Positions 1-38,608 are shown, numbered from the stretch's first letter. The stretch is DNA of 64,000 bases from Candidatus Harrisonbacteria bacterium (GCA_023255625.1 JAHFLF010000001.1:30255-94254); one strand, 5' to 3'. Notes: generated by a model not told the origin, from the letters alone. Numbers and translations: made by a program.

Positions 1-1123
1 CCGTAGAATATTCAGCGTCATTGCAGGTGCGCAGCATTACAGAAAATTTTACATTTTGACTGTGCGATAGACCTGAAACCTCATATGCCATTGATGAACC
101 GGTTGAGCCGAACAAATCCATGATGGTATCAATATGGTCAACATGTTCTACATATTTCAAATTCTCGCCGGTCATAATCTGAAAACAATGCTTTGCATTT
201 TTCGTATGACGAAGCACATTGCCAGACGATGTTTCGGTATGCAGCGCGTCAATCGCTTTCCGAATTGCCTTTCCGCGGAGCTCCTCAAACTGCTGCTGAT
301 ACTGGCGCAAAATTGTATGATCGCCCGTATTAATTTCGGCAAGACGCTTCATATACTCTTCCCGCGTCAGCTGCTCGTTAAACCAACAGTATTTTTTATT
401 ACGCAAATTCGTGCAGCCAAAGCAGTTCGTGCAATTCTTGCAGTCAAATAAAAACCAACTATCAACGCAGTTTTGTGAGTCGGTGCAAAAATTGCAGTTA
501 TACGACTCCTCTACTAAGGTGCACTGGTAACACCGGTCGCTATTTAATAACCAATTTGTGTCTATTGAGTTTTTAGATCTGTCAGGAATGTAACTATACT
601 GAATATCTTCGGATAAAAACGGAATTGAACAATAATAGCAATTTTTTGCCTGCACGCCACTAACTACATACTCACAATTAACACTCTTTGGATCCTTGCC
701 AAGTGCCTGCCGAGGAGCGCGATGCGCAAGGGTATCAAATTGTTCAAAAAATGGTTTTGCGGGCTCATGCTCCTGTGCAAATTGGCCTCCTTCCCATCCG
801 TCACCGTAATAAAATGAATCGTCGTACACAACAAGCGAATTAGAAGGGCTATAAAAACTCAAAATCTGCTCGGAGTGCCCCGGTGCATTGCACTGCCGGC
901 GATAAAAAACGGGCAAAAATGTAGCGCGCCAAGCCATCCGGCGCTGCATCCGGCAGGTCGGGCATAGTGTTGGTGGTGGTACCCGAAACAACTTGTACCA
1001 ATCAATATCGTCCGGCTCAACCGGAAAACTTTTCTGACATTGACGACACACCCGCTCGTGCGGCGTTAACTCGCCAAGAATTTTCTCAATTGCTGCATCA
1101 AATTGTGGTGTTTTTGAGCTCAT
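1..1123 (-). CDS. Cys-rich multi-zinc-ribbon family paralog, 5' part only; the gene runs off the window start. Reads MSSKTPQFDAAIEKILGELTPHERVCRQCQKSFPVEPDDIDWYKLFRVPPPTLCPTCRMQRR...
   Basis: Minus-strand reading frame open from the ATG at ~1121-1123 to position 1. It has the same N-terminal CxxC..(F/W)YKxxxVPPPTxCPxCRxQRR zinc ribbon and the CxxCxxCxGCxNLRNKKYCxxNEQLTxEEY module as the nine full-length paralogs. It is missing from the ORF track because no stop lies inside the window. Confidence 0.7.
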   Translation of the reverse strand, partial: MSSKTPQFDAAIEKILGELTPHERVCRQCQKSFPVEPDDIDWYKLFRVPPPTLCPTCRMQRRMAWRATFLPVFYRRQCNAPGHSEQILSFYSPSNSLVVYDDSFYYGDGWEGGQFAQEHEPAKPFFEQFDTLAHRAPRQALGKDPKSVNCEYVVSGVQAKNCYYCSIPFLSEDIQYSYIPDRSKNSIDTNWLLNSDRCYQCTLVEESYNCNFCTDSQNCVDSWFLFDCKNCTNCFGCTNLRNKKYCWFNEQLTREEYMKRLAEINTGDHTILRQYQQQFEELRGKAIRKAIDALHTETSSGNVLRHTKNAKHCFQIMTGENLKYVEHVDHIDTIMDLFGSTGSSMAYEVSGLSHSQNVKFSVMLRTCNDAEYST

Positions 1124-1126
1124 ACA

Positions 1127-1155
1127 ACTAGTCGCTTATTCGCGCGAATTAGAGA
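1127..1155 (-). promoter_or_regulatory. Operator-like site ACTAGTCGCTTATTCGCGCGAATTAGAGA immediately upstream of the partial paralog start
   Basis: A 26/29 match to the ArsR-promoter palindrome's left arm plus the inner palindrome ATTCGCGCGAAT. It is nearly identical to the 22829..22857 copy. Confidence 0.5.
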
Positions 1156-1162
1156 GTAGTAA

Positions 1163-1230
1163 TTATACGACTTCGGCATTATAGCAAGATTCGCAGTAAA
1201 CCCCGGTACTAGAACCTGCTGGTTCAGTAC
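1163..1230 (-). pseudogene. Remnant 3' end of a family paralog (encodes ...GSSTGVYCESCYNAEVV*). Its codons TGC-TAT-AAT form an extended -10 (TGCTATAAT).
   Basis: The 80-aa ORF at 1163..1405 ends with the family C-terminal signature YCESCYNAEVV but lacks the rest of the protein. It lies between the stop of the 1257..2984 paralog and the operator/start of the partial paralog. Confidence 0.4.
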
Positions 1231-1256
1231 GGGGCAAGTTTTTTCTTAGTTTGTTA

Positions 1257-2984
1257 TTACACAACTTCTGCATTGTAACATTGTTCGCAATATACCATCT
1301 CTCGTCTTCCAGGCGCATAGCTCGTCTCAAACTCGTTTGAGCATCCTGGGCGCATACACTGCCGGTGCCACAACTTCCACGGATTGCGCCACGCCAGACG
1401 AGCATAATGCCGACAGTTCGGACACTGCCGCGGGATAGGCAACTTAGCTCTCTTATAGAATACTAACTCCTGCGGCGTTAAACGAAAAGCTGCGGTGCAC
1501 TGATGCACGCATCCACCTGCCGACGGACCTGCGTGCTCACAGCCGATTGTTTTCTTAAGGATATCGTCGCTAATCAAAGCACTATCATCAGGCAGGTCGG
1601 CTGGCTTTATATCAATATTCGGATGCTTCTCCTCGGGCTCTTGATAGTTATACCCACGCGTAAGTAACTCATCTTTACTGAATGGGTAATACTCCTGTGC
1701 CACGCTACCGTTATACGCAAACGGCGAAAGTTCAATTGGGAAAAATTCACCGTATTTATACACGCGGCCACCCTTTCCTTGATACGGCATCGCGTCCATG
1801 TGTGCAATAATTTTCGGCACCATCTTTTCATACTCCTCCTTCGTATACTGCTTATTCAAAATACAATACTGCTTATTACGAACACCAAAACATCCGAATA
1901 GATTAGAGCTACTCTTGCACCAGCCAGTGTATGTGCAGTCCAAGAGCGCCCCATTAGAGGCAACGGAAAGTTTTAAATTACGATCGGCATCTCCCCCGCT
2001 AATATATTCATAAATAAGTTCTGCGCCGGCAATATTATTTGTGTCCATGCAGTCCTTAAGATTCAGACTGCGTCCCACATAGCGCACATCCTCACTGTCA
2101 AAAACTTCAAAGCAGCTCTTACCATTCTTTATCCCGCTTAGAGCATGACCAGTTGAATTAACTGATTTAATGATATTTGCGTACTTATGCAGTGCGCCCG
2201 TATACAGCTTGATAAAATCTTGCGTAAGCCCCTGGAATGTTTTGTAACTGCCCGTGTTTATTTTGCCCATCTCATCCTGATACTGCTCTTTTGTGAGCTG
2301 CCTACCATAAAAAACGTATTCGCGATTACGCAAGTTCGCCGACATAAAACAGTGCTGGCAGTTTACGCAATCAAAAAGAAATGCTGAATTTAAGGACGAA
2401 CGAACATAGACAGAACAGTAGACATCATAATTGAGTGTTCCAAAGGTGCTCCCATAACATCGTTCGCACTCCATCATATTCAGACAATCAAACACCTGCC
2501 GCGACTTGTCTACATTTTTGCAATAAAATGCCTCCTCGCTTCCGACGATAGAATATGAAAGATAGCAGTCCTTCGCGTCTTTTGTGACATTTGAATACGG
2601 CGAATTAACGGAATTCATGTGCCACAGGTTCGGCTGCGGAACGGCGCGGAGTAGTTCGTCTGCCTGCTCAAAAAATGGCCGGCTAAAATCATAGTCGCGA
2701 CCATAGCTTAGTGCATCCCATGAATCAGAGTAATAACACTCGTGGCAGAACACCGTCAGCTTCCCGTCTCCGGGATATACCGAAAAAATGCTTTTCTTGC
2801 AATTACCGCAAGCCGCCTTATATAGTGTCCGCTCATTTCGCCACGCGTACCGCCGCATGAGCCGACACTCCGGACACCAAGTTGGCGGCGGGACGTCAAT
2901 TTTCTTGTAAAAATCAAAATCCGAAGCGTCTATAATAAAAGATTCCTTGCAGTTCTGGCAGACCTTTGTTTCAGTAGAAGCCAT
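1257..2984 (-). CDS. Cys-rich multi-zinc-ribbon family protein (575 aa)
   Basis: ORF track. N-terminus MASTETKVCQNCKESF..FYKKIDVPPPTWCPECR, C-terminus ...LWHRQCMRPGCSNEFETSYAPGRREMVYCEQCYNAEVV. Internal NLRNREYVF..LTKEQY and CILNKQYTKEEYE repeats. Confidence 0.85.
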   Translation of the reverse strand: MASTETKVCQNCKESFIIDASDFDFYKKIDVPPPTWCPECRLMRRYAWRNERTLYKAACGNCKKSIFSVYPGDGKLTVFCHECYYSDSWDALSYGRDYDFSRPFFEQADELLRAVPQPNLWHMNSVNSPYSNVTKDAKDCYLSYSIVGSEEAFYCKNVDKSRQVFDCLNMMECERCYGSTFGTLNYDVYCSVYVRSSLNSAFLFDCVNCQHCFMSANLRNREYVFYGRQLTKEQYQDEMGKINTGSYKTFQGLTQDFIKLYTGALHKYANIIKSVNSTGHALSGIKNGKSCFEVFDSEDVRYVGRSLNLKDCMDTNNIAGAELIYEYISGGDADRNLKLSVASNGALLDCTYTGWCKSSSNLFGCFGVRNKQYCILNKQYTKEEYEKMVPKIIAHMDAMPYQGKGGRVYKYGEFFPIELSPFAYNGSVAQEYYPFSKDELLTRGYNYQEPEEKHPNIDIKPADLPDDSALISDDILKKTIGCEHAGPSAGGCVHQCTAAFRLTPQELVFYKRAKLPIPRQCPNCRHYARLAWRNPWKLWHRQCMRPGCSNEFETSYAPGRREMVYCEQCYNAEVV

Positions 2985-2989
2985 AGATA

Positions 2990-3095
2990 GTTAGAGTATA
3001 GAGCGGAGCCCCGCACCGTGCCAGCAGGCTCTGGTGCGTGGGAGCCGGTTCAACTCCGACGCCCAGTAGGGGTCGGAGCCCCGACCGGAGCGTCG
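2990..3095 (-). repeat. GC-rich structured 5'-leader element (copy 1) upstream of paralog 1257..2984
   Basis: ~105-nt GC-rich block with three hairpins (for example CCCCGAC-N6-GTCGGGG). Embedded in a ~200-bp block identical to 4797..4996. Confidence 0.6.
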
Positions 3096-3136
3096 GGGTC
3101 GTGAAATTCTGTTTGCAGTTCTGACAATTTTTAGTT
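3093..3136 (-). pseudogene. Remnant paralog N-terminus (MEAETKNCQNCKQNF) upstream of the GC-rich leader element
   Basis: An ATG plus family CQNCKxxF codons directly flank the element. The frame reads through the element to a stop just past the real ATG. The analogous remnant MMRDTRACQNCKQDF lies at ~4996..5034. Confidence 0.35.
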
Positions 3137-3194
3137 TCAGCTTCCATATTTTTTACTACATTATGACATTAGCAATAATGTCATAATGTTGTTA

Positions 3195-4862
3195 CTAAAG
3201 CATCTCCTTTTGATAACACGCTTCGCAATAAATCTTATACTCTTTTTGCTGCTGCGGCGAATACGAAGTCTCAAAATTGGCGGAGCAGTTCGCGCACGCC
3301 CCTGGCCAAAGCTCTCGGCGGTTACGCATATTCATACGACGCTGATGACGACAATTAAAACATTGCTTAGGAAGGGCTACGCCAAGTCGCCTGTACACTG
3401 AAATCTCGTGTGCGATAAATTTATAGTTCCTGCCACACTCTGTACATTTGAGAACATGCTTTAATAATTCATCGGAATACTCTGAGGGAATCTGGGGCAG
3501 ATCCTCGTGGCTGATGGTTTCTTTACCAACAGTACTTGGAATGTCATCCTGCCAACGAAAACCTTGAGCAAGCGCCTCCTCTTTAGTCAGGGGCATATAT
3601 TCGTTGACAATCGCTTCATTATAGGCAAACGGCGAAAGTGAGGCGGGAAAAAATTGCCCCCATTCCCCTGTTTTTCTCATGTGTCCGACAATTTCAGGGA
3701 CCAGTTCTTCGTACTGCTCTTTAGTGTACTGCTTATTTAAAATACAATATTCCGCATTACGCATCCCGGCACACCCGAATAAATTTTTAGAAGCGAAAAT
3801 GAAATCTGAATAGTAAATATCGTGTGAGGCATGACAATAGTGATTGCCGATGATATGACTACTCGCCCCAATCGCCGTCACTATCTCATAGGATTGATCG
3901 GGTTCAAGCGAGAAAGAGGCGTCATATACCTGCACCGCCCGCCGGCCCGTGAATACAAACTTTGAGTCCTCGCCTGCACGCAGATCAAAACAATACTGTA
4001 AATTTTTACCATTATAGATATGATTGCCGGAAACTTCGGTATTGTGACTACCAAAGTAATGATGCTGCGGTAATTCTCTCCGAAGTTTCAACTGCTCGGC
4101 TAAAATCATTTTAATCGTCTCCGGATCATGCAGCGGATGCTCCTTCAGGAACTGCTCGTACTGCTCTTTAGTTACCTGCTGATTGAAAATATGGTAACTC
4201 TTCTGGATAAGACCGACGCATCCAATAGAATTACTCACGCTGCGACAGTCATACAAACCAATACTGTCGTTGCAGTTTTCGCACTCCTCTGAGTACAAAA
4301 TCTGGTAACAATTTACGCAATCAACGCACTCATAGCATGAGTCTGATTTATGAACATAGAGGCCATCAACACAATTTTTTGAGTCCCAGACTATATGGCC
4401 ATATGAGCAGTCTTCGCTTTCAGGACAACCAAAAACTAAGTAACAATTTTTGCTGTTGAGAATAAAATTTGAATACTCGCATCCCTGACAGTTAACAGCA
4501 TTGGTTGCAAAACGCGGCACAACCTTCAGTAGGTCATTGAATTGATCAAAAAATGGGCGGTTAAAATCAAAATCGCGGCCATACGATTTAGAATCCCAGC
4601 CATCACTCCACCATTCGTCGTTCGCATAAATCGCGTAGGGTGATTTTGGATGATACATTGAGACCACCATCTTGCCCGACTTATCCGACGGCCTCTTATA
4701 TAATGTCTTAAAATTCCGGAAAAGCATCCGCCTTTGATTACGACACTGCGGACACCAGGTCGGCGGCGGTACCGCCATTTTTTTGTAGAACTCAAAGTCC
4801 GAAGCGTCTATAACAAAAGATTCCTTGCAGTTCTGGCAGACCTTTGTTTCAGTAGAAGCCAT
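3195..4862 (-). CDS. Cys-rich multi-zinc-ribbon family protein (555 aa)
   Basis: ORF track. The N-terminal 15 aa are identical to the 1257..2984 paralog, and ~200 nt of DNA (5' leader plus start) are identical. Confidence 0.85.
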   Translation of the reverse strand: MASTETKVCQNCKESFVIDASDFEFYKKMAVPPPTWCPQCRNQRRMLFRNFKTLYKRPSDKSGKMVVSMYHPKSPYAIYANDEWWSDGWDSKSYGRDFDFNRPFFDQFNDLLKVVPRFATNAVNCQGCEYSNFILNSKNCYLVFGCPESEDCSYGHIVWDSKNCVDGLYVHKSDSCYECVDCVNCYQILYSEECENCNDSIGLYDCRSVSNSIGCVGLIQKSYHIFNQQVTKEQYEQFLKEHPLHDPETIKMILAEQLKLRRELPQHHYFGSHNTEVSGNHIYNGKNLQYCFDLRAGEDSKFVFTGRRAVQVYDASFSLEPDQSYEIVTAIGASSHIIGNHYCHASHDIYYSDFIFASKNLFGCAGMRNAEYCILNKQYTKEQYEELVPEIVGHMRKTGEWGQFFPASLSPFAYNEAIVNEYMPLTKEEALAQGFRWQDDIPSTVGKETISHEDLPQIPSEYSDELLKHVLKCTECGRNYKFIAHEISVYRRLGVALPKQCFNCRHQRRMNMRNRRELWPGACANCSANFETSYSPQQQKEYKIYCEACYQKEML

Positions 4863-4867
4863 AGATA

Positions 4868-4973
4868 GTTAGAGTATAGAGCGGAGCCCCGCACCGTGCC
4901 AGCAGGCTCTGGTGCGTGGGAGCCGGTTCAACTCCGACGCCCAGTAGGGGTCGGAGCCCCGACCGGAGCGTCG
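4868..4973 (-). repeat. GC-rich structured 5'-leader element (copy 2) upstream of paralog 3195..4862
   Basis: Identical to copy 1. Confidence 0.6.
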
Positions 4974-5078
4974 GGGTCGTGAAATCCTGTTTACAGTTTT
5001 GGCACGCTCGTGTATCGCGCATCATGTATCGTATATCGTAATGCTTCTATCCCCACGTTACAAGTTATACGTTATGCG

Positions 5079-6782
5079 CTACACGACTTCGGCGTTATAG
5101 CAGGCTTCACAATATATTTTTTCTTTGCGCTCTGGCGCATACGGCGTTTCAAATTCGTTTACACAACCCTGCTTCATACACCTCCGGTGCCAGAGTTTAC
5201 GGGGCGGACGCAGGCCAATGCGGCGCAGGTAGCGGCACTCCGGGCAGAGACGCGGGATTGGCAAATTCAGACGACGAAGCAGCTGCAATTCGGGCACAAC
5301 AATATTGTAATTCTTGGCACACTTTGTGCAGGTCAGCGCCTCTTTGGTAATCGTCTCCGGCGCGTCTTTAATATCATCAGGCAATTCAGACATCACGAGC
5401 GTCCCCTTGCCAAAGGTGCCAGGCACGAGCTCTTCCCACTTGAATCCCTTAGTCATCGCCTCCTCTTTGGTCATTGGCATATAAATCTGACCCTGCGTCT
5501 CATTGTAGCCAAATGGCGAAAGCTGCACCGGGAAAAACTCGCCGTATTCACCAGCTGTGCGCATATGGGCGATAATTTTTGCACGCAGTTCTTTATACTC
5601 CTCTGGTGTATATTGTTTATTAAAAATACAGTATTTTTTCTTTCGCATGCCAACGCAACCAAACAAATTTTCACTATTGTGGCAGCTGTCGCAGTACGAA
5701 ATAAAGGCATTGTCGTAACTCAAATGAGTGAAAAAGGTATTGTTATCGCGCACGAGCGCATGGCACTCGTAAATCAATGAACAACTGAATCCAAAGTGAT
5801 ACGAATCCATTGAATCTTTAACATCCGGGCAGACAAGGCAGTAGGTTGAGTCCTCGGTCTTTTCGGCATCAAATACATGGCGACAATTTTTTGAGGACGA
5901 AATTTCGTTGCCCGAGACCTGGACCGAGCGGTCAATAACGGCAAATTTGTGAATCGCCTTCTCGCGCATGATTTCAAGAAACTGATTGTACAACTGTTGT
6001 CGCGCCTCATGCGAACCTAGTTTTCCGCCGGAGGCGGATCCGCCTTGGGCGGAAAATTCAGCAACCCGTTTCTCGTAGGCCTCTTTTGATAATTGCTCGT
6101 TAAGAAATACATACTGCTTGTTGCGCAGATTCACGGAAAGAAAACAATTTGACGCGCCGCGGCAGTCATAACAGTAGCTGCAATTAGTACAATCGCGCAG
6201 CAGAATACTATACTGACAGTTGTAACACTTAGAACAGTTAATACTCTCGTACATCAGATCATTGCCCTGCGAAAGCCAGTAACAATCAGCCGAGTCGCGG
6301 GCTCCATTAAAAGTATTGGTTGAATACAATACATTCTCTGACTCAAATAATCCGAAGCAGAGATAACAATTTTTATTGTCGCTTGAATGATTTGTATACT
6401 CTGAATTAACACTATTTTTTGAAAGGAGCGCGATACGCGGAACCTCTAGCTGCATCTCCTGCCACTGCGGGAAAAATGGTCGCGAAAAATCAAAATCACG
6501 CGCATAACTCGTCGCGTCCCACCCATCACCCCACCAACAGTTTGGACAGTACACCTTAAACGGCTTGTTCGGCGAATAAATCGTGACAATACTCTTTTGA
6601 CACAAATCACAATTACGACGGTAGAGCACTCGCTCATTTCGCCAGGCATAGCGACGACGCTGACGACAATCCGGGCAGTGCGTCGGCGGCGGAACATTAA
6701 TCTTTTTGTAAAAATCAAAGTCTGCCGGTTCAATTTGGAAATTCTGTTTACAATTTTGGCAGACTTTTATTTCTGAATTCAT
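5079..6782 (-). CDS. Cys-rich multi-zinc-ribbon family protein (567 aa, about 36 Cys)
   Basis: ORF track. Family N- and C-terminal motifs (..YCEACYNAEVV). The start lies 5 nt downstream of the murB stop, so co-transcription is likely. Confidence 0.85.
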   Translation of the reverse strand: MNSEIKVCQNCKQNFQIEPADFDFYKKINVPPPTHCPDCRQRRRYAWRNERVLYRRNCDLCQKSIVTIYSPNKPFKVYCPNCWWGDGWDATSYARDFDFSRPFFPQWQEMQLEVPRIALLSKNSVNSEYTNHSSDNKNCYLCFGLFESENVLYSTNTFNGARDSADCYWLSQGNDLMYESINCSKCYNCQYSILLRDCTNCSYCYDCRGASNCFLSVNLRNKQYVFLNEQLSKEAYEKRVAEFSAQGGSASGGKLGSHEARQQLYNQFLEIMREKAIHKFAVIDRSVQVSGNEISSSKNCRHVFDAEKTEDSTYCLVCPDVKDSMDSYHFGFSCSLIYECHALVRDNNTFFTHLSYDNAFISYCDSCHNSENLFGCVGMRKKKYCIFNKQYTPEEYKELRAKIIAHMRTAGEYGEFFPVQLSPFGYNETQGQIYMPMTKEEAMTKGFKWEELVPGTFGKGTLVMSELPDDIKDAPETITKEALTCTKCAKNYNIVVPELQLLRRLNLPIPRLCPECRYLRRIGLRPPRKLWHRRCMKQGCVNEFETPYAPERKEKIYCEACYNAEVV

Positions 6783-6787
6783 ACTCG

Positions 6788-11409: not shown

Positions 11410-12063
11410 CTATCCGGCTATCTCCCCCTTCAATTTCTGCGCCTCCTCGCCAAAAAAATCTTTCCATACTCGTGGCTCAAGCGGAGCAATCAAGCGGGGA
11501 TAATCTTTCGCATCAGCAGCCCGCAAAAACTGACTCGCTAATTGAAGCGGGTCAACATGCCAGTCAAACTTTACCTTTGCCTGCTTAACTAAATCCGCAA
11601 TACTATAGTTTTTCTCCTTGCACAAACAATATAAATCAATATAATCCCGCGCCTTCACGCGCTGATAGATAGTAAATAATTTGTTGACTGCGATATCAAA
11701 CACGCTATCAATACTCACGCCATTTTTCTGCAATCCCTTTTCAATGCGGGCAAATGGGAAGAACGTAAATTCAGTTTTTAAAACCTCGCTGTCGGAAAAT
11801 TTCAGAAAATACAGATTCCGATTAAAGCTCTGCTGACTATCAACACTCGTAAATCCAAGTTTTGGCCGCATCTGCGCCAGCATCGCCTGTACCGCTGATG
11901 GATCAAACTCCTGCTCTGAAAAAAAATCTAAATCCTCGGAATAGCGATAGGGCAGATAAAATCCCGCGAGTGCCGTTCCGCCCGTCAGATAAAACTGCTT
12001 TGATAGGTTACTCGCACCAAAATACTCCAAAAATGCAGTTTGGCGCTTCGTGAGAATTTCCAT
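11410..12063 (-). CDS. AbiEii/AbiGii-family nucleotidyltransferase (type IV toxin-antitoxin toxin-like)
   Basis: 217 aa with FYLTGGTALAGFYLPYRYSEDLDFF, the characteristic GGTAL...RxSEDxDF nucleotidyltransferase signature of AbiEii (DUF1814). Confidence 0.65.
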   Translation of the reverse strand: MEILTKRQTAFLEYFGASNLSKQFYLTGGTALAGFYLPYRYSEDLDFFSEQEFDPSAVQAMLAQMRPKLGFTSVDSQQSFNRNLYFLKFSDSEVLKTEFTFFPFARIEKGLQKNGVSIDSVFDIAVNKLFTIYQRVKARDYIDLYCLCKEKNYSIADLVKQAKVKFDWHVDPLQLASQFLRAADAKDYPRLIAPLEPRVWKDFFGEEAQKLKGEIAG

Positions 12064-19349: not shown

Positions 19350-19384
19350 ATTCTCTATTTACCTATTCGTACGAATAAGACAAT
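19350..19384 (-). promoter_or_regulatory. Conserved 35-bp inter-paralog spacer containing the palindrome ATTCGTACGAAT (a variant of the TATTCG..CGAATA operator core)
   Basis: Identical 35-mer attctctatttacctattcgtacgaataagacaat at 19350..19384 and 36811..36845, each directly upstream of a paralog ATG. Confidence 0.5.
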
Positions 19385-21081: not shown

Positions 21082-21123
21082 GTCTTTATACTACAACCTA
21101 CTCACTACAAACTACAACCTATC

Positions 21124-22828: not shown

Positions 22829-22857
22829 CTAGTCGCTTATTCGCGCGAATTAGAGAA
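22829..22857 (-). promoter_or_regulatory. Operator-like site ACTAGTCGCTTATTCGCGCGAATTAGAGA between the ArsR stop and the 21124..22827 paralog start
   Basis: Same motif as 1127..1155, directly abutting the ATG. Confidence 0.5.
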
Positions 22858-23110
22858 TAGAAATAATATGTTTTGCAGTCGCTGGCGGTGCGTCGCTCAA
22901 CCGATAAAACATATTCAAGCTCTGCTGATCCCGATCTAAAATTTCAGCGGCTCGCAAAATACCAAGATGCTTTGAAGTGGCTTTGAGCGAAAGGTTAAGC
23001 TCGTCGGCTATCGCGGAAACAGACGCGCGCCGAACGCGTTTTAAATATTTTAAAATTGCAAGCCGCCTTGCATTTGCTAGCGCTTTGAGAGTTTTCTCAA
23101 GCTGTCGCAT
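22850..23110 (-). CDS. ArsR/SmtB-family HTH transcriptional regulator (86 aa, no Cys, no obvious metal site)
   Basis: LKALANARRLAILKYL...VSAIADELNLSLKATSKHLGILRAAEIL is the ArsR-type wHTH. A perfect 32-bp palindrome lies in its promoter. Confidence 0.75.
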   Translation of the reverse strand: MRQLEKTLKALANARRLAILKYLKRVRRASVSAIADELNLSLKATSKHLGILRAAEILDRDQQSLNMFYRLSDAPPATAKHIISIL

Positions 23111-23145: not shown

Positions 23146-23177
23146 ACTAGTCGCTTATTCGCGCGAATAAGCGACTA
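23146..23177. promoter_or_regulatory. Perfect 32-bp palindrome ACTAGTCGCTTATTCGCGAATAAGCGACTAGT in the promoter of the ArsR-family gene (putative autoregulatory operator)
   Basis: Read directly from the sequence. It is centred ~50 nt upstream of the ArsR ATG. Half-site copies occur directly upstream of two Cys-rich paralog start codons. Confidence 0.6.
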
Positions 23178-29738: not shown

Positions 29739-31403
29739 TCAACTTATATTCTGTTGATAACAAGGAGTGCAAGAGATCTTCTTGAAGCCAAGTTCCGGGT
29801 CATAATAATGCTCAATTTCTTTTTTGCAATAATAACAGATACCGTGCTGTGGCATGAACATCAGGCACATAGGGCGGAAGCGTTCGAATGTGCGTTGGTC
29901 AAAATGCTTCTGGGGAAGCGGAATGCCGTGCTGGCGGTAGAATGCGAGTTCATGTGGAGCGATATTGTAACTCAATTTACTTTCAACACAGATGAGCCGT
30001 TGTTTAGTAATTTCATCTTTAACATCGTCAATCAAATCCGGCAACTTATCGCTCGCAATCGCATTTTCATAGCTCGGAATAGGAGTCTCTTCCCAGCGCG
30101 CCCCCATCGCCTCTGCCTCCTTCTTGCCCATATGCGGGAAGCTCCAGCGGGCTAAAGACATGTTAAACGGGCCATATGCCATCTCAAACGGAAAAAACTT
30201 CCCCCACTCTCCCCGTTTCACCATATCCTGCTTGATCCGCTCTCTAAGTTTTTCATACTCCTCCTTCGTGTACTGTTTATTTAAAATGCAGTGTTTCTTT
30301 TTCCGTAGGCCGACACTACCAAAACAATCTTGGCACTCTTCGCAGGAATCCAGATACATGCTGTACCGGCAATTGGTCACATACATCACGCACGAATTCC
30401 CATAACTCCACTGATCGAGCAACGTCCTCGTTGATCTTTCAGTGAGCCCGCAGGAAACGACTTCGATAGAATCTTTTGCCTCGTATCCCCTGATGAGTTG
30501 ACGGCAATTTTCAGATTTTTCTACGAAACTGCAATTAGTGCAATTCTTATTTTCGGTCATAAAATTACCCCGACACGCGGTAACCTGCGTGTTAAGATTC
30601 TCCCGATGCACCGCTTCGTCCCGCAAATGTCCCCAAAACTCTTCCTTAAGTTTCTGTACTGCTGAAAATGACCGTAGATTATATTGCTTCAGTTTTTCAA
30701 AGTATTCTTCTTTGGTGTATTGCTGATTTAAAATACAATAGCGTTTATTGCGGAGATTCCAACTCATGAAGCAGTTATTGCAATTCCTGCAATCGTACAA
30801 AAACGCGCTTTCAACAGAATCGTGGGTATTAAAACAATATTTCAAGCGCCATCCTTTATAGCAATATAAACAGTCGTACGACTGCTCAATATCAAAACAG
30901 TAGGCGCAATCAATACATTCTTTCGCGGTGCTGATCCGATATCCGTAACTGACGGTTTCGTTACGGTAACCAGATCGGCACAGGTACGAATCCTTGGACT
31001 CCCACCAATCATCGGTCCATTCGCAGGCAGTATTCAGGCGGCCAAGTTGGTGCGGATGAGGCACTTTATGCTGAAGCTCGGTAAGTTGCTCTAAAAATGG
31101 CCGGTTTGGATCGTAATCCTGTCCGTACGAAAGTGGATCCCACGCGTCTGAAAGGAATTCTTCATGTTCATAGATCGGAAATTTGACGCTTTCCGGCAGC
31201 ATCGTAATTATCTGCTTTCCGCTGAGCGCTGATTTGGTTACGCGAAACCTCCCTAATATCCAAAATCCCAAGAGGCGCTTCCAGGTGCAGCCCATGCAGT
31301 CCGCGGTCGGCGGAATCCCCGCCTGCTCATACATTACCAAATCTTCCGTAGTCAACGTGAATAGTTGCGTACAATTGGCACAGAATTTATTTTGACTACT
31401 CAT
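29739..31403 (-). CDS. Cys-rich multi-zinc-ribbon family protein (554 aa, divergent member)
   Basis: ORF track. NKRYCILNQQYTKEEYFEKL and KKKHCILNKQYTKEEYEKL modules. The start overlaps the pepA stop by 8 nt. Confidence 0.8.
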   Translation of the reverse strand: MSSQNKFCANCTQLFTLTTEDLVMYEQAGIPPTADCMGCTWKRLLGFWILGRFRVTKSALSGKQIITMLPESVKFPIYEHEEFLSDAWDPLSYGQDYDPNRPFLEQLTELQHKVPHPHQLGRLNTACEWTDDWWESKDSYLCRSGYRNETVSYGYRISTAKECIDCAYCFDIEQSYDCLYCYKGWRLKYCFNTHDSVESAFLYDCRNCNNCFMSWNLRNKRYCILNQQYTKEEYFEKLKQYNLRSFSAVQKLKEEFWGHLRDEAVHRENLNTQVTACRGNFMTENKNCTNCSFVEKSENCRQLIRGYEAKDSIEVVSCGLTERSTRTLLDQWSYGNSCVMYVTNCRYSMYLDSCEECQDCFGSVGLRKKKHCILNKQYTKEEYEKLRERIKQDMVKRGEWGKFFPFEMAYGPFNMSLARWSFPHMGKKEAEAMGARWEETPIPSYENAIASDKLPDLIDDVKDEITKQRLICVESKLSYNIAPHELAFYRQHGIPLPQKHFDQRTFERFRPMCLMFMPQHGICYYCKKEIEHYYDPELGFKKISCTPCYQQNIS

Positions 31404-33018: not shown

Positions 33019-33056
33019 AGAGTCCAGCCGTCGGCGCGATGGTGTATAATATCTAG

Positions 33057-33950: not shown

Positions 33951-35110
33951 ATCAAAAACCGGCTGTTTTAATTCTTGATGTAGGCACAACAACAATTAAA
34001 GCATTTGTGTTTGATCAGGAACTCCATGTCCTTGGCCAAGCAAAACTAGAGCCAAAAAAAACTCGCCCGCAATCTGGCTTCGTTGAACAAGATCCGCTGG
34101 AGTTGCTCGCGCTAGCAAAGCAGGTGCTCGTACAAGCGGTGGCTATAGCAAAAATTGCGCCCGCCGAAATTTTATCTTTCGGAATCACAAATCAGAGGGA
34201 AACTGTTATCGCTTGGGATAGAGCCACCGGCGAGCCACTTTACCCGGCAATAGTCTGGGAAGATACGCGCACAGCAAAAACATGCGCTGCGTTAGAGCGC
34301 TTTACCGGCTTCGTCCGCGAAAAAACCGGCCTGCCAATTGATCCATATTTTTCTGCTACTAAAGTCAGCTGGTTATTACAACAACCGCCAGTTATCCATG
34401 CGCTGCGGGAGAAAACTCTTTGCGTCGGGACAGTTGACAGTTGGATTCTTTGGAACCTTTCAGCCGAGCATCTCCATGCCACTGATTACACCAACGCGAG
34501 CCGGACGCTTCTTTTCAATATAAAAACATTAAGCTGGGACAGCGAATTATTAAAACTCTTTGCTGTCCCGGCCGAAATTCTGCCGAAAGCGCAGCCGTCC
34601 GCCGCGAACTTCGGTTCGCTGAATACTGATATTGTCGGTGCACTAATTCCGATTCGTGCGCTTTGCGGAGATCAGCAGGCCAGCCAGTACGCCGCTGGCG
34701 TAAATGTCGGTGCAACAAAAGTAACACTAGGTACGGGAATTTTTATTTCTCAAATTATCGGAAGTAATTTCCAAATTCGACCTCCTTTTTTTACGACACT
34801 TGTGCCAAATGAAAAACAGCCCTGGTACGCGCTTGAGCAGAAAATAAATGAGTCTGGCTCGAGAATTCAGGAACTACTTGATAAAAAAATGGATCTGGCT
34901 CCGCTGCTCAAAGAGTTTTCAGAGGATGTAAATATATATTTGAAAAAACTACCGCGCCAACCGGCCGAACTTGTAATTGACGGCGGTATAACTCAAGCGC
35001 CGGCGCTCGCGGATATTCTCGCGGAGACAACTGGCTTGCCGGTGCGCCGCCAAATAATTCCAGATGGCACACCGCTTGGTATGGCAAAATTATTGTTTAG
35101 CCGCGATTAA
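33947..35110 (+). CDS. glpK: glycerol kinase-like FGGY carbohydrate kinase (truncated C-terminal domain)
   Basis: LILDVGTTTIKAFVFD...ITNQRETVIAWDRATGEPLYPAIVWEDTRT...DPYFSATKVSWLL are GlpK motifs. 387 aa against the typical ~500 aa. Confidence 0.65.
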   Translation: MNQKPAVLILDVGTTTIKAFVFDQELHVLGQAKLEPKKTRPQSGFVEQDPLELLALAKQVLVQAVAIAKIAPAEILSFGITNQRETVIAWDRATGEPLYPAIVWEDTRTAKTCAALERFTGFVREKTGLPIDPYFSATKVSWLLQQPPVIHALREKTLCVGTVDSWILWNLSAEHLHATDYTNASRTLLFNIKTLSWDSELLKLFAVPAEILPKAQPSAANFGSLNTDIVGALIPIRALCGDQQASQYAAGVNVGATKVTLGTGIFISQIIGSNFQIRPPFFTTLVPNEKQPWYALEQKINESGSRIQELLDKKMDLAPLLKEFSEDVNIYLKKLPRQPAELVIDGGITQAPALADILAETTGLPVRRQIIPDGTPLGMAKLLFSRD

Positions 35111-36810
35111 ACAACCTCGGCGTTGTAGCAAGTTTCGCAATAGACTATGTCGGGCCGGTCGGGCGCAAAACTAGTAATAAACTTATTGGCGCAGCCCGGC
35201 TTCATGCACTGGCGATCATAAAATATGGCTTTGTTGCGTTGAATAATTCGGGCGGAGTGGCGGCAATCTATGCATGTCCGTGGAAGAGGAATTTCGAACT
35301 GGCGCAAGAATTGTAACTCCGGACCAATAATGCGATACGCTTTTTTACACTCTGCACACTGAATGATCTGCTTCACGATATCATCCTGCGCATTACCAAT
35401 AGAATCCGGAAGCTGCGCAGCAGTCATCGTCGTTTGATACTCTGTTGGATTTGGTTCTTGCCACCGCGCACCAAATGCGAGCGCCTCCTCTTTAGAAAGC
35501 TTAAAATGCTCGGGGCTGATACTTTGATCGTACGCAAATGGAGAAAATTCCGGCGGAAAAAATTCACCGTATGCGTATGTCCTACCCTGTTTATCTACAT
35601 GCGGCATCGTATTCATCTGCTCAATAATTTTTTTGCGCAACGCAAAATAATCTTCTTTAGAGTATTGCTTATTCAAAATACAGTACTGCTTGTTTCTGAC
35701 TGACACGCAGCCAAATAAATTCATGGCAGTCCCGCCGCAGTGCATGCAATATTCAAAGTCTGAACCTCCGTCCCAACACTCCCAGCAGAACTTGAGGCGG
35801 GTTGCTCCCCATCCAGAGGTTGCAGATTCATAGACAAGCTCCGTGGCGCCAGTAACCGTAACATCCATAGAATCAGTAGTCGGCAGTGCCTGCGAATACT
35901 GGATATAGCGCAGATCCTGGCCCTCGGCAATCACATACCCATGGTGTACATTTTTTGAGAAGCTCACAAAATCGCCGCTGACATTTGCGTTCAACATTCC
36001 TTGCAAATTCTTGATAGGAAATGTAAGCCAAAATTCTTTTGCTTTTTGCCACGCTACTGTAAGCCCGCTCCAGGTATCAAGTTTGAGCGCTTCAAGCCGT
36101 TTAAAGTACTCCTCCTTAGTAAGCTGCTCATTATTAAAGCAATAACTCTTATTGCGCAAATTCACGCAGCCGAAACAGTCGGTGCAACCGCGACACTCCC
36201 GAGAAAACCAAATTGAAGCTGACTCGGCACAGAGCGAAGAGAAAAATGCCTTATTGCAAGAAAGCACCCAGAAACAGCCATAACAACTTTCTGACTTTTT
36301 CAGATTAGAATTATCATACGAATTTTTGCATTCATCAATCCCGTTGCCGTATCCGCAGTCTTCGTCATGATTTGCGTTGAAGACTAAATAACAATTTTTA
36401 AGCCCGTCGGCGTTACCAGAGTAATCGCTGTTAACCATATTGATAGCGGCCGAGCGATAACGCGGCACCTTTTGATTGAGCTCCTGCAGTTGCGCCAAAA
36501 ACGGCCGACTTGGATCAAAATCCTGGCCATAACTCATCGGGTCCCATCCTGTCTGCCCAAACCACTCCTTATCATCATAAATAGGAAACCCGCAATCAGC
36601 TGGATAGATACCAACCGTGTCTCTGCCGGTAGTCGCCTCCTTAATCCTAAACAACTTTCGCTCATTGCGAAACAACATTCGCCTGCGCATCCGGCACTGC
36701 GCACACCATGTAGGCGGCGGCACATCAATCTTTTTGTAAAAATCAAAATCCGCCTCTTCGATCACAAAATCTTTTTTACAGTTTTGGCAGTATCTAGTTT
36801 CCGGTCTCAT
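35107..36810 (-). CDS. Cys-rich multi-zinc-ribbon family protein (567 aa)
   Basis: ORF track; family motifs (..IVYCETCYNAEVV). Confidence 0.85.
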   Translation of the reverse strand: MRPETRYCQNCKKDFVIEEADFDFYKKIDVPPPTWCAQCRMRRRMLFRNERKLFRIKEATTGRDTVGIYPADCGFPIYDDKEWFGQTGWDPMSYGQDFDPSRPFLAQLQELNQKVPRYRSAAINMVNSDYSGNADGLKNCYLVFNANHDEDCGYGNGIDECKNSYDNSNLKKSESCYGCFWVLSCNKAFFSSLCAESASIWFSRECRGCTDCFGCVNLRNKSYCFNNEQLTKEEYFKRLEALKLDTWSGLTVAWQKAKEFWLTFPIKNLQGMLNANVSGDFVSFSKNVHHGYVIAEGQDLRYIQYSQALPTTDSMDVTVTGATELVYESATSGWGATRLKFCWECWDGGSDFEYCMHCGGTAMNLFGCVSVRNKQYCILNKQYSKEDYFALRKKIIEQMNTMPHVDKQGRTYAYGEFFPPEFSPFAYDQSISPEHFKLSKEEALAFGARWQEPNPTEYQTTMTAAQLPDSIGNAQDDIVKQIIQCAECKKAYRIIGPELQFLRQFEIPLPRTCIDCRHSARIIQRNKAIFYDRQCMKPGCANKFITSFAPDRPDIVYCETCYNAEVV

Positions 36811-36845
36811 ATTCTCTATTTACCTATTCGTACGAATAAGACAAT
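36811..36845 (-). promoter_or_regulatory. Second copy of the 35-bp spacer with the ATTCGTACGAAT palindrome
   Basis: Identical to 19350..19384. Confidence 0.5.
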
Positions 36846-36847
36846 GG

Positions 36848-38608
36848 CTATGAAACTTCTTGCTGATAACACTGCTCGCAATACACAATTTCGGGCCGGT
36901 CAGGGGCAAAAGGAGTCTCAAATACTGAAGGACAGGGCTTCTCGCCATGAAAATGCATTACGGCGTTTTGATACCCTACCTTCTGAGACTGCCGATTGCA
37001 ATCGCACACACAAGACCAGAGCTGGTGAGGATTCTTCGTAGCAATTCGTGCCTTATGGCGACAATAAAAACATTGTCGAGGAAGCGGAATTTTTAAGCGA
37101 CGATAGAATTTTAGCTCCGCCGGGACAACACGATAGTTTCTTTTACAATCAATGCAGGCAAAAATTTCCTTTGTGATTTCATCTTGTACATCCGCGATAC
37201 CGTCGGGAATCTCCTCGAGTGGCATCGTCTCTTTACCAACCGTCATCTGCAGCTGATCCTGCCACCGCAAACCCTTTGCATCAACCTCATTTCCTGAAAG
37301 TGGAAAATAATCCTGAGCAACACTTTCATTATACGCAAAATACGAAAGTTCTGATGGCAGAAATTCGCCGAAAGCATACGCGATCCCATTTTTATCCAGA
37401 TATGGATTCGCCTGCATATCTTCCTTTATTTTTGTAACTAACGATTCGTATTCCTCTTTAGAATACTGCTTATTCAAAATACAATACTGGGCCTTTTTGA
37501 GCCCAACGCAGCCAAATAAGTCTTTCGAGGAATGACATGCGTCCACGTAAGCAACATTTTCATTGCGCCACGAAAAAATCGCGAACATACTGCGATAGGA
37601 AAGGTCGGGCGTTACGCCTTCGTAGCACTGGTCAAGTTTTCCTCCAACGCTTAGATCATAGGAACCCCGGGGCGTATCTGCATTTTCTACCCATTTGCAA
37701 TCCTCTCCGCGTTGAACGTTAAAACACTGCTTTGAATTTTTACAATTCATTAAGCTATCGCCGGTACAATTCACGCAGTTTCTCTGCGTAGCAAATCTTC
37801 GAGGCGTGCTCAAAAAAATATCTTTAAATTCCTTTTTTGCTTTTTCTACACCGGTGTAGGTATCAAGTCGATAGTCTCGAAGGATCTTTTCGTACTCTTC
37901 TTTTGTATATTGTTTATTTTTAAAGCAATACCGTTTGTGACGTAGACCAACAGACATAAAACAATCAGCGCAGTCTCGACAGTCATAGCAAAAAGAACAA
38001 TCCGATAAGGAAACAGAATAATACACGTACCGACACTGAAAGCACTTTTCGGTGGCAACTGTTTCATATGTAAACTGACAATCCCCCATGCTATTTACTG
38101 CATCAACAATATCTTTGCCATTGATAAGATACGAGCTATAGAGGCACTCTTCGAGTTCCCAGGCGATAAAAACCATATAGCAGTTTTTACTGGAGGCAAA
38201 ATCCTGAGTATATTCACAGTTTACGCTTGTGATGCCGTCATCGTTGGCGGTAGTCCACATCGGCACGCGACGCTGGAGTTCCGCAAACTGCTCTAAGAAT
38301 GTTCGAGTAGGATCATACGTCTGCTCGTAGCTTTTTGGATCCCACTTGTCACTCCACCAACATTTAGGACAATACACAGTATTGATAGGTCCGTTTGGCG
38401 CGTACAGCGAAATAACCGACTTGTGGCACAGAGCACATGTTCGAGAATATAACATCGTATCGTTGCGCCACGAAAGACGGCGCTGCTTGCGACACTCCGG
38501 GCAAAACGTCGGCGGAGGTACCTCTAACTTTTTGTAGAATGCCAAATCTTCGTCTTCGACAATAAACTCTTTTTTGCAATTCTGACATGCGCGGATTTCC
38601 GAATTCAT
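36848..38608 (-). CDS. Cys-rich multi-zinc-ribbon family protein (586 aa)
   Basis: ORF track. The start abuts the stop of the RhuM-Fic/Doc gene. Confidence 0.85.
   Translation of the reverse strand: MNSEIRACQNCKKEFIVEDEDLAFYKKLEVPPPTFCPECRKQRRLSWRNDTMLYSRTCALCHKSVISLYAPNGPINTVYCPKCWWSDKWDPKSYEQTYDPTRTFLEQFAELQRRVPMWTTANDDGITSVNCEYTQDFASSKNCYMVFIAWELEECLYSSYLINGKDIVDAVNSMGDCQFTYETVATEKCFQCRYVYYSVSLSDCSFCYDCRDCADCFMSVGLRHKRYCFKNKQYTKEEYEKILRDYRLDTYTGVEKAKKEFKDIFLSTPRRFATQRNCVNCTGDSLMNCKNSKQCFNVQRGEDCKWVENADTPRGSYDLSVGGKLDQCYEGVTPDLSYRSMFAIFSWRNENVAYVDACHSSKDLFGCVGLKKAQYCILNKQYSKEEYESLVTKIKEDMQANPYLDKNGIAYAFGEFLPSELSYFAYNESVAQDYFPLSGNEVDAKGLRWQDQLQMTVGKETMPLEEIPDGIADVQDEITKEIFACIDCKRNYRVVPAELKFYRRLKIPLPRQCFYCRHKARIATKNPHQLWSCVCDCNRQSQKVGYQNAVMHFHGEKPCPSVFETPFAPDRPEIVYCEQCYQQEVS

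Follow-up and report, generated by a model that had tools for sequence, protein, structure and literature searches.

A family of cysteine-rich proteins with duplicated predicted zinc-binding ends, widely shared among Patescibacteria and in part encoded beside VirD4-type ATPases

The window analysed here, i.e., the whole 64-kb stretch of DNA, carries on its minus strand ten ORFs, nine of them complete and one truncated, of a cysteine-rich protein of approx. 560 residues, which are co-linear from end to end in alignment. As judged by sequence relationships, these copies belong to old orthogroups that are widely shared among Patescibacteria. The family is undescribed, as the searches made returned no database name, structural likeness, or paper. 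It is conceivable, and at present the tentatively preferred reading, that the copies serve as interchangeable partners or cargo of an orphan split VirB4/VirD4-type ATPase module encoded in the same window.

Gene copies and distribution of the family

All ten ORFs were found exactly where the original prediction had placed them. Copy 1 (1..1123) is partial and runs off the window start, its N-terminal 374 residues matching positions 4-351 of the family HMM with 341 bits. Beside it lie copy 2 (1257..2984, 575 aa, 851 bits), copy 3 (3195..4862, 555 aa), and copy 4 (5079..6782, 567 aa), which starts 5 nt past murB and whose orthologues show 60-78% identity. Copies 5 (17568..19349, 593 aa), 6 (19390..21081, 563 aa), and 7 (21124..22827, 567 aa) are next, the last with an ArsR/SmtB-like gene directly upstream. 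Copy 8 (29739..31403, 554 aa), the most divergent, has lost the cysteines of its Zn3 module in the alignment; it overlaps the pepA stop by 8 nt and lies 116 nt upstream of the gene for a long ATPase. Copies 9 (35107..36810, 567 aa) and 10 (36848..38608, 586 aa) belong to a co-directional run (short ATPase, Fic/RhuM, copy 10, copy 9) in which copy 10 begins 1 nt after the Fic/RhuM gene, and the three operon junctions proposed earlier (after murB, over the pepA stop, and abutting Fic/Doc) are therefore borne out. The nine complete copies all have an intact reading frame and reach 736-857 bits against the family HMM; a sensitive HMM scan of the window detected no further copies, only three short remnants. 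Together, the copies account for 25.8% of the window rather than approx. 27%, and their pairwise identity is 25-43%, lower than the 35-60% first estimated. Their Cys content of 5.3-6.9% (30-39 Cys per protein) agrees with the approx. 6% predicted. Over 13.6 kb of the region, assemblies made independently from other samples match it with 100% identity, so that the copies are not assembly duplications, which the earlier view had already held to be unlikely. Contigs from other samples tend to stop at or near the repeat block.

The three remnants, all on the minus strand, comprise a C-terminal piece between copies 2 and 1 (1166..1256; HMM positions 512-562, E 3e-4), which ends in YCESCYNAEVV before a stop, and two decayed N-terminal pieces matching HMM positions 1-16, one upstream of copy 2 (MEAETKNCQNCKQNFT; 3100..3147, E 1e-3) and one upstream of copy 3 (MMRDTRACQNCKQDFT; 4978..5025, E 0.014). 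At their 5' ends, copies 2 and 3 share a stretch of 171 nt (2937..3107 and 4815..4985, minus strand) that is perfectly identical and sits within a 264-nt block at 94% identity. The identity noted earlier for a block of approx. 200 bp (2921-3120 and 4797-4996) is real, but its perfect part is shorter, and the proposed gene conversion between adjacent copies can be upheld as a local event between these two 5' ends. The stretch contains a GC-rich structured element of approx. 115 nt and the first approx. 16 codons of copy 2. The element folds with -62 kcal/mol (z -4.0) and is absent from 160 fetched loci; since an Rfam scan of the whole window returned one tRNA only, it is not a known RNA. The GC-rich insert is not regarded as an intron, since the N-terminus begins anew in the sequence downstream of it and is not continued there.

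The original prediction spoke of a tandemly amplified family. In the sense of a recent, lineage-specific amplification, this part did not hold: every window copy has its closest relative in another genome (44-62% identity), compared with at most 43% within the window, and the copies thus do not stem from recent amplification. What remains of the prediction is that the copies are true paralogs of one family, in which both the Zn-binding end and the Cys-rich core are duplicated. Its members form 2,384 clusters (50% identity, E<=1e-30) across Patescibacteria, and orthogroups are conserved across distant lineages. No member was found outside Patescibacteria, to which the family appears to be confined. 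At least two copies are present in 58 of 79 loci, with a maximum of 11 (up to 11 per 20 kb). Among viral contigs, one marginal fragment was detected, which indicates that the family is not phage-borne. Of 209 family genes, 190 point the same way as the gene preceding them, the median gap being 23 nt.

Predicted architecture of the proteins

Each protein consists of a Zn cap, two successive solenoids, an acidic linker, and a second Zn cap. Within each cap, a zf_Tbcl treble clef precedes a CxxC-x17-CxxC ribbon; these predicted modules would bind zinc. Homology links the N-terminal Zn module to the C-terminal one (hhalign 99.1%, E 6e-19) and the first Cys-rich solenoid module to the second (hhalign 99.9%, E 8.5e-32), so that both the mirrored terminal ribbon and the doubled Cys-cluster module proposed earlier are substantiated, and all motifs quoted in the original prediction recur in the alignment consensus. 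Its term "zinc ribbon" lacks precision where Zn1 and Zn3 are concerned, because these two match zf_Tbcl, a treble-clef model. Among 299 members, Zn-site cysteines are 81-98% conserved, whereas those of Zn2 are kept in only 54-78%; the Zn1 cysteines C8/C11/C36/C39 reach 94-98%, and all copies align across this module. As foreseen, the termini are conserved and the centre varies (mean column entropy 1.5-1.7 vs. 2.3-2.6 bits in 299 sequences).

Within the solenoid modules, Cys spacings are almost exclusively multiples of three, the unit is nonapeptide-like, and Cys columns swap freely with Ser (299 sequences). Modelling suggests two tightly wound beta-solenoids in which Cys/Ser recur at every third residue; the AF2 model of copy 4 has a pLDDT of 84.8 and a pTM of 0.87, with moderate values (pLDDT 60-77) in the solenoid part. 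A conserved CxxCxxCxxC cluster is also present, its fourth Cys being 73% conserved. Conservation extends to 63 non-Cys columns at 85% or more, and invariant or near-invariant polar and aromatic residues outside the Zn sites include D21, D86, W88, D98, Q106, K137, E149, D166, N228, N388, N427, E498, and R517. Net charge is about neutral to acidic for the whole protein (+4 to -10) and strongly basic for Zn3 (+2 to +10). The proteins are made in the cytoplasm; no hydrophobic segment was found in the copies (maximum Kyte-Doolittle 19-residue mean <=1.03), in agreement with the predicted lack of a signal peptide.

Database matches are confined to the ends. Copy 3 passes the gathering score of zf_Tbcl (PF13451; 31.8 vs. 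24 bits, residues 6-45), copies 2 and 9 remain below it (19.3 and 15.9 bits), and the other copies go undetected; a PF13451 match is precomputed for some homologues. At the C-terminus, zf_Tbcl_2 (PF23477) and TIGR04272 score 15-20 bits, with cutoffs of 27 and 36 bits, respectively. No named family covers the protein, and for the core Pfam, NCBIfam, PADLOC, and PDB have no match; Pfam, NCBIfam, PADLOC, and PHROGs together yielded only the weak terminal Zn-module matches and one weak PHROG of unknown function. A PDB sequence-profile search returned only chance-level LIM matches, and Foldseek found no match for the model in the PDB. Nor is there a Pfam match to Fer4, whose 4Fe-4S ferredoxin motif CxxCxxCxxxCP differs from the CxxCxxCxxC seen here, or to the Hexapep, pentapeptide, and YadA models.

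The neighbouring ATPase module and regulator

Two soluble VirD4/TrwB-like ATPases are encoded on the minus strand, a long one (27778..29622; zf_Tbcl_2 46.3 bits, TIGR04272 49.2) and a short one (39651..41177), for which TrwB is the only PDB sequence match; TrwB_AAD_bind scores 45.4 and 29.4 bits, respectively (cutoff 20.5). Their conserved neighbours, also on the minus strand, are a 2-TM protein with a C-terminal Rx4H motif and a weak HEPN-like match (41272..42060), a protein with an N-terminal TM helix and a fold like the VirB4 N-terminal domain without a P-loop (42133..43455), which also resembles EccE, and a sigma-70 region 4 + HARE-HTH protein (43656..44708). The conserved gene block reads secDF - sigma/HARE - VirB4-N-like protein (c2) - 2TM - ATPase - ATPase. 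The two ATPases and the VirB4-N-like membrane protein form a module of the T4SS VirB4/VirD4 class; no other T4SS/T7SS Pfam families or channel components (VirB6, VirB8, and the like) were found in the window. Patescibacterial genomes have about two T4CP homologues each, most of which lie away from virB4 and may have been exapted to serve another function (PMC12102498). The long ATPase bears a CxxC-x17-CxxC Zn ribbon (aa 469-502) followed by a disordered P/Q/R/G-rich tail. This ribbon resembles Zn2 (hhalign 93.8%, E 1.7e-7) and Zn4 (85%, E 6e-6) of the family, which bears out the likeness to an ATPase zinc ribbon suspected at the outset.

The ATPase is the top non-family neighbour of the family (44 genes in 27 of 79 loci). 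Immediate family-ATPase adjacencies number 27, all co-directional and with gaps of -8 to 260 nt, against approx. 1-1.5 expected on the assumption of about two T4CP homologues per genome (PMC12102498); adjacency is thus approx. 20 times the chance level, and the link holds in both search directions, the counts being inflated by shared synteny because many sampled loci come from related genomes. Starting from the ATPase, the family is present in 25 of 32 loci (>=15 kb) and less than 300 nt from the ATPase in 33 loci. The adjacent members represent several orthogroups, and the idea that one paralog lineage is the dedicated ATPase partner was therefore rejected. Only a minority of family genes adjoin an ATPase; the remainder lie among housekeeping genes (murB, pepA, comEC, grpE/dnaK/dnaJ, and ribosomal protein genes). 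Among distant ATPase orthologues (<=60% identity), the module persists with no family gene close by, which indicates that the ATPase does not need the family.

The gene directly upstream of copy 7 (22850..23110, minus strand) encodes an 86-aa regulator of the ArsR/SmtB family (NF033788, 64.3 bits, cutoff 55; HTH_20/HTH_5) that has no Cys and, by its sequence, no obvious alpha3N or alpha5 metal-site residues. Upstream of it lies the perfect dyad TTATTCGCGCGAATAA (23155..23170), the core of a 34-nt palindrome. Related dyads occur 10 nt ahead of the start of copy 7 (22837..22852), upstream of the copy 1 start (1136..1151), and, as variants, upstream of the starts of copy 5 (CTATTCGTACGAATAA; 19363..19378) and copy 9 (36824..36839). 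Thus, five sites were found against 0.04 expected, and 4 of the 10 copies bear one. The ArsR - dyad - family arrangement recurs in another locus (L004). It appears that an ArsR/SmtB-type repressor controls a subset of the copies via this candidate operator.

Possible functions and known systems

If the copies are partners or cargo of the module, the VirB4-N-domain membrane protein, the 2-TM protein, and the short and long ATPases would constitute an orphan membrane-anchored machine, of which the copies would most likely be cargo or cargo-selecting adaptors. The conserved caps might act as a common docking handle, the long ATPase bearing the same type of ribbon, and the more variable solenoid surfaces could give each paralog its own specificity. 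The small ArsR/SmtB-type repressor would act on a subset of the copies through the dyad operator. We infer from gene order and the common ribbon that family proteins and ATPases may interact physically, with a translocation or adaptor role. Against this stands the fact that the Zn-stabilised ends reach to the last residues, unlike the usual unstructured C-terminal secretion signals; the small share of family genes adjoining an ATPase, the distant ATPase orthologues that have no family neighbour, and the lack of channel components in the window count against it as well. The original guess of metal- or nucleic-acid-binding adaptors is so far neither borne out nor contradicted, the strongest new evidence being the association with the ATPase module, an idea that the original prediction did not contain. 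One could go further and regard the family as the exported cargo of an unrecognised Patescibacterial secretion pathway, in which the split VirB4/VirD4-type ATPase beside SecDF delivers a diversified set of zinc-capped solenoids to the surface of the cell or into its host as an interface of episymbiosis, in analogy to mycobacterial PE/PPE-ESX. This is unlikely; if true, it would explain the role of the approx. two orphan T4CP homologues per Patescibacterial genome.

It might be asked whether the copies are mere artefacts, either duplicated in assembly or functionless and decaying, as selfish elements or pseudogenes would be. The remnants and the conversion tract do reveal local turnover, and the repeat block is where contigs of other samples often break off, at or close to it, but with nine complete copies intact (736-857 bits), a mutual identity of only 25-43%, independent assemblies 100% identical across the region, and orthogroups conserved across distant lineages, this explanation is effectively refuted. 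It is somewhat unlikely that the copies are stand-alone cytoplasmic nucleic-acid-binding proteins, such as regulators or binders specific for a DNA or RNA sequence or structure, whose four Zn modules touch nucleic acid; the proximity to ATPases would then reflect a gene order passed on by descent or a nucleic-acid substrate common to both. Four treble-clef/ribbon modules per protein, the strongly basic Zn3 (+2 to +10), the R/G/P/Q-rich disordered tail after the long ATPase ribbon, which is typical of nucleic-acid binders, and the location of most copies among housekeeping genes instead of beside ATPases would suit such a role. However, the charge of the whole protein (+4 to -10), a large solenoid core without parallel among known DNA- or RNA-binding folds, and an ATPase adjacency that is approx. 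20 times the chance level and holds in both directions argue against it.

With 30-39 Cys per protein, at least four conserved tetra-Cys sites, and the CxxCxxCxxC cluster, the copies could also be imagined as metallothionein-like proteins for metal/thiol buffering and storage under an ArsR/SmtB-type repressor, as in cyanobacterial SmtB-SmtA. The ArsR/SmtB-family gene directly upstream of copy 7, the operator-like dyads before copies 1, 5, 7, and 9 and the regulator (5 vs. 0.04 expected), and the same order in L004 are consistent with this. Metallothioneins, however, are small and very Cys-rich (roughly 30%), with few conserved non-Cys residues, whereas the complete copies have 554-593 aa, 5.3-6.9% Cys, and 63 non-Cys columns conserved at 85% or more. 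The interchange of Cys and Ser in the solenoids suits packing residues better than ligands, the regulator lacks Cys and obvious alpha3N/alpha5 metal-site residues, the dyad precedes only 4 of 10 copies, and ten diverged, long-maintained orthogroups would be unexpected for a bulk buffer, all of which makes storage improbable. Finally, the conserved polar and aromatic residues outside the Zn sites could form an active site, and the location within housekeeping operons (190 of 209 genes co-directional with the upstream gene, median gap 23 nt) would fit an enzyme or a different housekeeping factor, catalytic or structural in nature, with sub-functionalised paralogs. This is improbable, as no enzyme family or fold matches, at least ten paralogs per small genome are unusual for a housekeeping enzyme, and the family is absent outside Patescibacteria.

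Returning to the preferred partner or cargo role, its closest parallels are the PE/PPE/Esx proteins of ESX type VII systems (EccC/EccE) and T4SS effector families, which likewise comprise many diverged paralogs with conserved ends and a variable middle, encoded both beside an FtsK/VirD4-class ATPase and dispersed; the resemblance of the VirB4-N-fold membrane partner to EccE adds a further point of contact with ESX. As in T4SS/T7SS substrates, the genes lie beside the ATPase (27 adjacencies vs. approx. 1 expected; 25 of 32 anchored loci). However, the likeness is by analogy only, as the family shares no sequence or fold with PE/PPE/Esx or known effectors, its ends are Zn-stabilised, unlike helical or unstructured signals, and no full channel for translocation (VirB3/6/8 or EccB/C/D) is encoded in the family locus. 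All four terminal modules belong to the zf_Tbcl (PF13451) and zf_Tbcl_2 (PF23477)/TIGR04272 types, domains without established function whose models span approx. 40 residues each and leave approx. 75% of the protein unmodelled. A literature search for PF13451, zf-trcl, TIGR04272, PF26449, and DUF8128 found no papers, the main text of the Meheust preprint on CPR protein families is silent about this one, and a 2026 "Knotted Solenoid" paper concerns an unrelated small family. As in SmtB-SmtA, an ArsR/SmtB-family gene adjoins a Cys-rich gene with dyads upstream of both, but the family proteins are ten times the size of metallothionein and far poorer in Cys, the regulator has no recognisable metal ligands, and the site is found at only some copies.

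Patescibacteria (CPR) have very small genomes, yet approx. one quarter of this 64-kb stretch is devoted to ten old paralogs. The published census of Patescibacterial T4SS left the role of orphan VirD4-like ATPases open (PMC12102498). To this can now be added that such ATPases are part of a conserved module that also includes a VirB4-N-domain membrane protein and that, among their variable neighbours, the solenoid family predominates, a zinc ribbon being common to family and ATPases. ATPase binding, membrane transit, and paralog-specific targets thus become testable questions. With regard to structure, the Tenebrio molitor antifreeze protein (TmAFP, 1ezg), the UspA1/YadA head, and the GlmU left-handed beta-helix match only very weakly (3-13% identity). 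Cys-ladder beta-helices such as TmAFP, in which Cys recurs every 6 residues, also carry Cys in fixed register along the coils; the family differs from these and other tight solenoids in its three-residue, nonapeptide-like period, its cytoplasmic origin, and its zinc caps, and a solenoid with Cys in a three-residue register may represent a new repeat type of structural interest.

Family copies, architecture and age

On the minus strand, a mechanical ORF listing contains nine complete ORFs (554-593 aa) and one that leaves the window at its start. These match exactly the ten coordinates of the original prediction (copies 1-10: 1..1123, 1257..2984, 3195..4862, 5079..6782, 17568..19349, 19390..21081, 21124..22827, 29739..31403, 35107..36810 and 36848..38608). 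The copies occupy 16,531 nt, i.e., 25.8% of the window, close to the predicted ~27%, and their cysteine content of 5.3-6.9% agrees with the expected ~6%; the identity of 35-60% between paralogs was, however, an overestimate, as pairwise BLASTP gives 25-43%. The motifs quoted earlier are all present in the alignment consensus, the copies co-align over their full length, and the operon junctions are as described (murB gap 5 nt, pepA overlap 8 nt, Fic/RhuM gap 1 nt). The Kyte-Doolittle mean over any 19-residue stretch does not exceed 1.03; thus, the copies have neither a membrane segment nor, as already noted, a signal peptide. A six-frame HMM scan at maximum sensitivity found no further copy in the window, and it picked out a C-terminal family remnant (1166-1256) and two 16-codon N-terminal remnants (3100-3147 and 4978-5025).

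In profile-profile comparisons, the N-terminal ~85 residues are homologous to the C-terminal ~85 (99.1%, E 6e-19), and the first Cys-rich module is homologous to the second (99.9%, E 8.5e-32). These two internal duplications give the layout cap (modules Zn1+Zn2), solenoid 1, helices, solenoid 2, helix, acidic linker domain and cap (Zn3+Zn4). Zn1 and Zn3 belong to the zf_Tbcl type of Pfam ("probable treble clef"), for which copy 3 passes the gathering score, whereas the CxxC-x17-CxxC type (zf_Tbcl_2/TIGR04272) is represented by Zn2 and Zn4, with sub-threshold HMM scores and support from hhalign. Among 299 members, Cys conservation is 94-98% in Zn1, 81-98% in Zn3, 97-98% in Zn4 and 73-98% in the CxxCxxCxxC that closes solenoid 1; in Zn2 it is 54-78%, i.e., the cysteines are kept in only about half of the members. 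Judging from these motifs, the caps probably bind zinc. The linker (residues 411-477 of copy 4) has an acidic composition and Zn3 a strongly basic one. Conserved termini and a variable centre, as originally proposed, are borne out by column entropy (1.5-1.7 vs. 2.3-2.6 bits).

For copy 4, AlphaFold2 gives a model of good overall confidence (pLDDT 84.8, pTM 0.87), with pLDDT above 90 in the caps and 60-77 in the solenoids, and Foldseek returned no structural neighbour of the family. Up to 30 residues, Cys-Cys spacings in the solenoids are 3-4 fold enriched wherever they are a multiple of three, in a nonapeptide-like register ([Y/F]-x-C-x-x-C-x-x-C), and other spacings are almost absent from solenoid 1. 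Cysteine is often replaced by serine in these columns of the 299-member alignment, which points to packing positions more than to ligands.

Each copy in the window has its best relative elsewhere (44-62% identity, among 290 relatives, a modest sample) rather than inside the window (at most 43%), and orthologues of copy 4 with 60-78% identity occur in Ryanbacteria, Staskawiczbacteria and Liptonbacteria, among other groups. The copies thus represent old orthogroups maintained by selection, and lineage-specific amplification, if meant as a recent event, does not hold. With clustering at 50% identity, an exhaustive profile search returned 5,766 clusters with E<=1e-3, of which 2,384 reach E<=1e-30, and at least 581 stretches match in species-representative genomes; the viral contigs searched are essentially free of the family. 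Of the 79 retained loci, nearly all are labelled Patescibacteria (Paceibacteria/Minisyncoccia lineages, Peregrinibacteria and Gracilibacteria), and the remainder bear only a generic "bacterium" label, apart from two with proteobacterial MAG labels, which are probably mis-binned. Two or more copies lie within about 20 kb in 58 of the 79 loci, with a maximum of eleven. This is a large, old multigene family with a new architecture, seemingly confined to Patescibacteria.

Two-way linkage to VirD4/TrwB/HerA-like ATPases

When neighbours were clustered across all 79 family-anchored loci, a VirD4/TrwB/HerA-like ATPase was by far the top non-family neighbour (44 genes in 27 loci), and it immediately adjoined a family gene 27 times, always on the same strand and with gaps of -8 to 260 nt. 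Patescibacterial genomes carry about two such ATPase genes each (5,713 in 2,918 genomes; PMC12102498), so about one adjacency would be expected by chance. Only 148 of these genes lie near virB4, and it has been suggested that the ATPases may have been "exapted for other functions" (PMC12102498). Reciprocally, the family occurs in 53 of 80 ATPase-anchored metagenome loci, including 25 of the 32 that are at least 15 kb long, and lies less than 300 nt away in 33, although the sampled loci are partly related and linkage counts are thus inflated. Within this set, ATPases at most 60% identical to those of the window have no family gene in their loci. The ATPase-adjacent family members are spread over several orthogroups.

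The window encodes a long ATPase (27778-29622), with a disordered P/Q/R/G tail and a CxxC-x17-CxxC ribbon that scores above the Pfam and NCBIfam cutoffs, and a short one (39651-41177) with neither. The ribbon is homologous to Zn2/Zn4 of the family and not to Zn1/Zn3. The family and an orphan VirB4/VirD4-class ATPase module are thus tightly linked in both directions and have a ribbon type in common.

Gene-order maps define a conserved block, which the window reproduces exactly: secD-secF, a sigma-70-region-4/HARE-HTH protein, a ~440-aa protein, a 2-TM protein, the short ATPase, family genes and the long ATPase. The ~440-aa protein (model pLDDT 85.2) has an N-terminal TM helix, and its homologues are all Patescibacterial hypotheticals; since it lacks a P-loop, its likeness is only to the N-terminal domain of VirB4. 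Taken with the soluble TrwB-like ATPases, it looks like a split, membrane-anchored VirB4/VirD4-class motor. The 2-TM neighbour (41272-42060, minus strand) has an Rx4H motif (RNELAH) in its C-terminal soluble domain, which also gives a weak match to HEPN_Swt1 (E 0.048), and may, very tentatively, carry a membrane-tethered HEPN-like domain. Between the short ATPase and copy 10 lies a RhuM + Fic/Doc gene (38610-39611, minus strand; PADLOC candidate defence family PDC-S23, E 3e-125), which is not at this position in other loci and is thus probably a strain-specific insertion.

In many related genomes, the ATPase/family cluster is located within the Hsp70 chaperone operon. The order dnaK, long ATPase, family gene(s), short ATPase, dnaJ, grpE is seen in loci L085, L090, L094, L097, L105, L109 and others, and the dnaK-dnaJ genes of the window (50427-54544) are on the same strand, about 10 kb off. 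This setting could be either inherited gene order or a functional hint. Elsewhere in the window, lepA and ndk flank the gene for a type IV toxin-antitoxin toxin, a nucleotidyltransferase of the AbiEii type (11410-12063, minus strand); other assemblies of this organism have a small ORF annotated immediately upstream of this gene (4523-4717 of locus L162).

A candidate regulator and local turnover

Directly upstream of copy 7 lies an 86-aa ArsR/SmtB-family gene (22850-23110, above the NCBIfam cutoff). There are five occurrences of the dyad TTATTCG-NN-CGAATAA in the window, vs. 0.04 expected. The sole perfect dyad (23155-23170), upstream of the regulator gene, is embedded in a perfect 34-nt palindrome, with TTATTCGCGCGAATAA as candidate operator; the other four (1136-1151, 19363-19378, 22837-22852 and 36824-36839) are near-identical and precede the starts of copies 1, 5, 7 and 9 by 10-30 nt. 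The core dyad also precedes family genes in four other loci, and the order regulator, dyad, family gene recurs in another genome (L004, about 17958-18784). The protein looks like a candidate autoregulated repressor with four family genes as its regulon. Its sequence contains no cysteine and no obvious metal site, so a metal signal should not be assumed.

Copies 2 and 3 share 171 identical nt (2937-3107 = 4815-4985), somewhat less than the ~200 bp reported originally. Gene conversion, as had been proposed, is supported for these two 5' ends and at no other site. The shared 171 nt consist of a GC-rich element of ~115 nt and the initial ~16 codons, and identity fades further into the gene. The elements (2985-3099 and 4863-4977, minus strand; starting ACCCCGACGCTCCGGTCGGGG and ending GGGGCTCCGCTC) lie directly upstream of the two start codons in a genome of 46% GC, with a predicted fold of -62 kcal/mol (z -4.0). 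They have no Rfam match, occur only twice in the window and are absent from 160 related loci. Upstream of each is a decayed, older N-terminal gene fragment, and the element may be a small mobile or regulatory one that ousted the original 5' ends. A 46-nt direct repeat (TACTACAACCTAC..., 80% identity) is also present just upstream of copy 6 and of the Fic/RhuM gene (21075-21120 and 39605-39650).

Possible functions and comparison with known systems

Given the linkage, the copies may be partners, either cargo or adaptor, of the orphan ATPase module, a reading that we favour tentatively. The conserved caps would then serve as a common handle toward the module and the solenoids as specificity surfaces of individual copies. 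However, the majority of copies do not adjoin an ATPase, the family is missing from distant ATPase modules, and no channel genes lie nearby. Stand-alone nucleic-acid binding is a less probable role for the copies. It is rather improbable that they are metal or thiol buffers controlled by the ArsR-like repressor, and an unrecognised enzyme is just as doubtful. An artefact is effectively excluded: the window and independently assembled contigs of other samples agree at 100% identity for as much as 13.6 kb, which upholds the earlier view that assembly duplication is unlikely, and the tendency of these contigs to stop at or near the repeat block is expected of a true genomic repeat. The remaining probability is assigned to functions outside these readings.

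The original prediction could not place the family in Pfam, and indeed only the end modules fall in named domains, which are functionally uncharacterised; for the core, no named family, structural neighbour or literature was found. The family is therefore rated as outside known kinds, with building blocks (zinc knuckles, solenoid) of familiar fold classes and a putative function. Known systems offer analogies rather than membership: the partner reading would resemble the multigene substrate families of secretion ATPases (PE/PPE-ESX, T4SS effectors) functionally, the solenoids may be likened to Cys-ladder beta-helices such as beetle antifreeze protein, and the ArsR-like gene with the family could be compared with the SmtB-SmtA regulatory pair.
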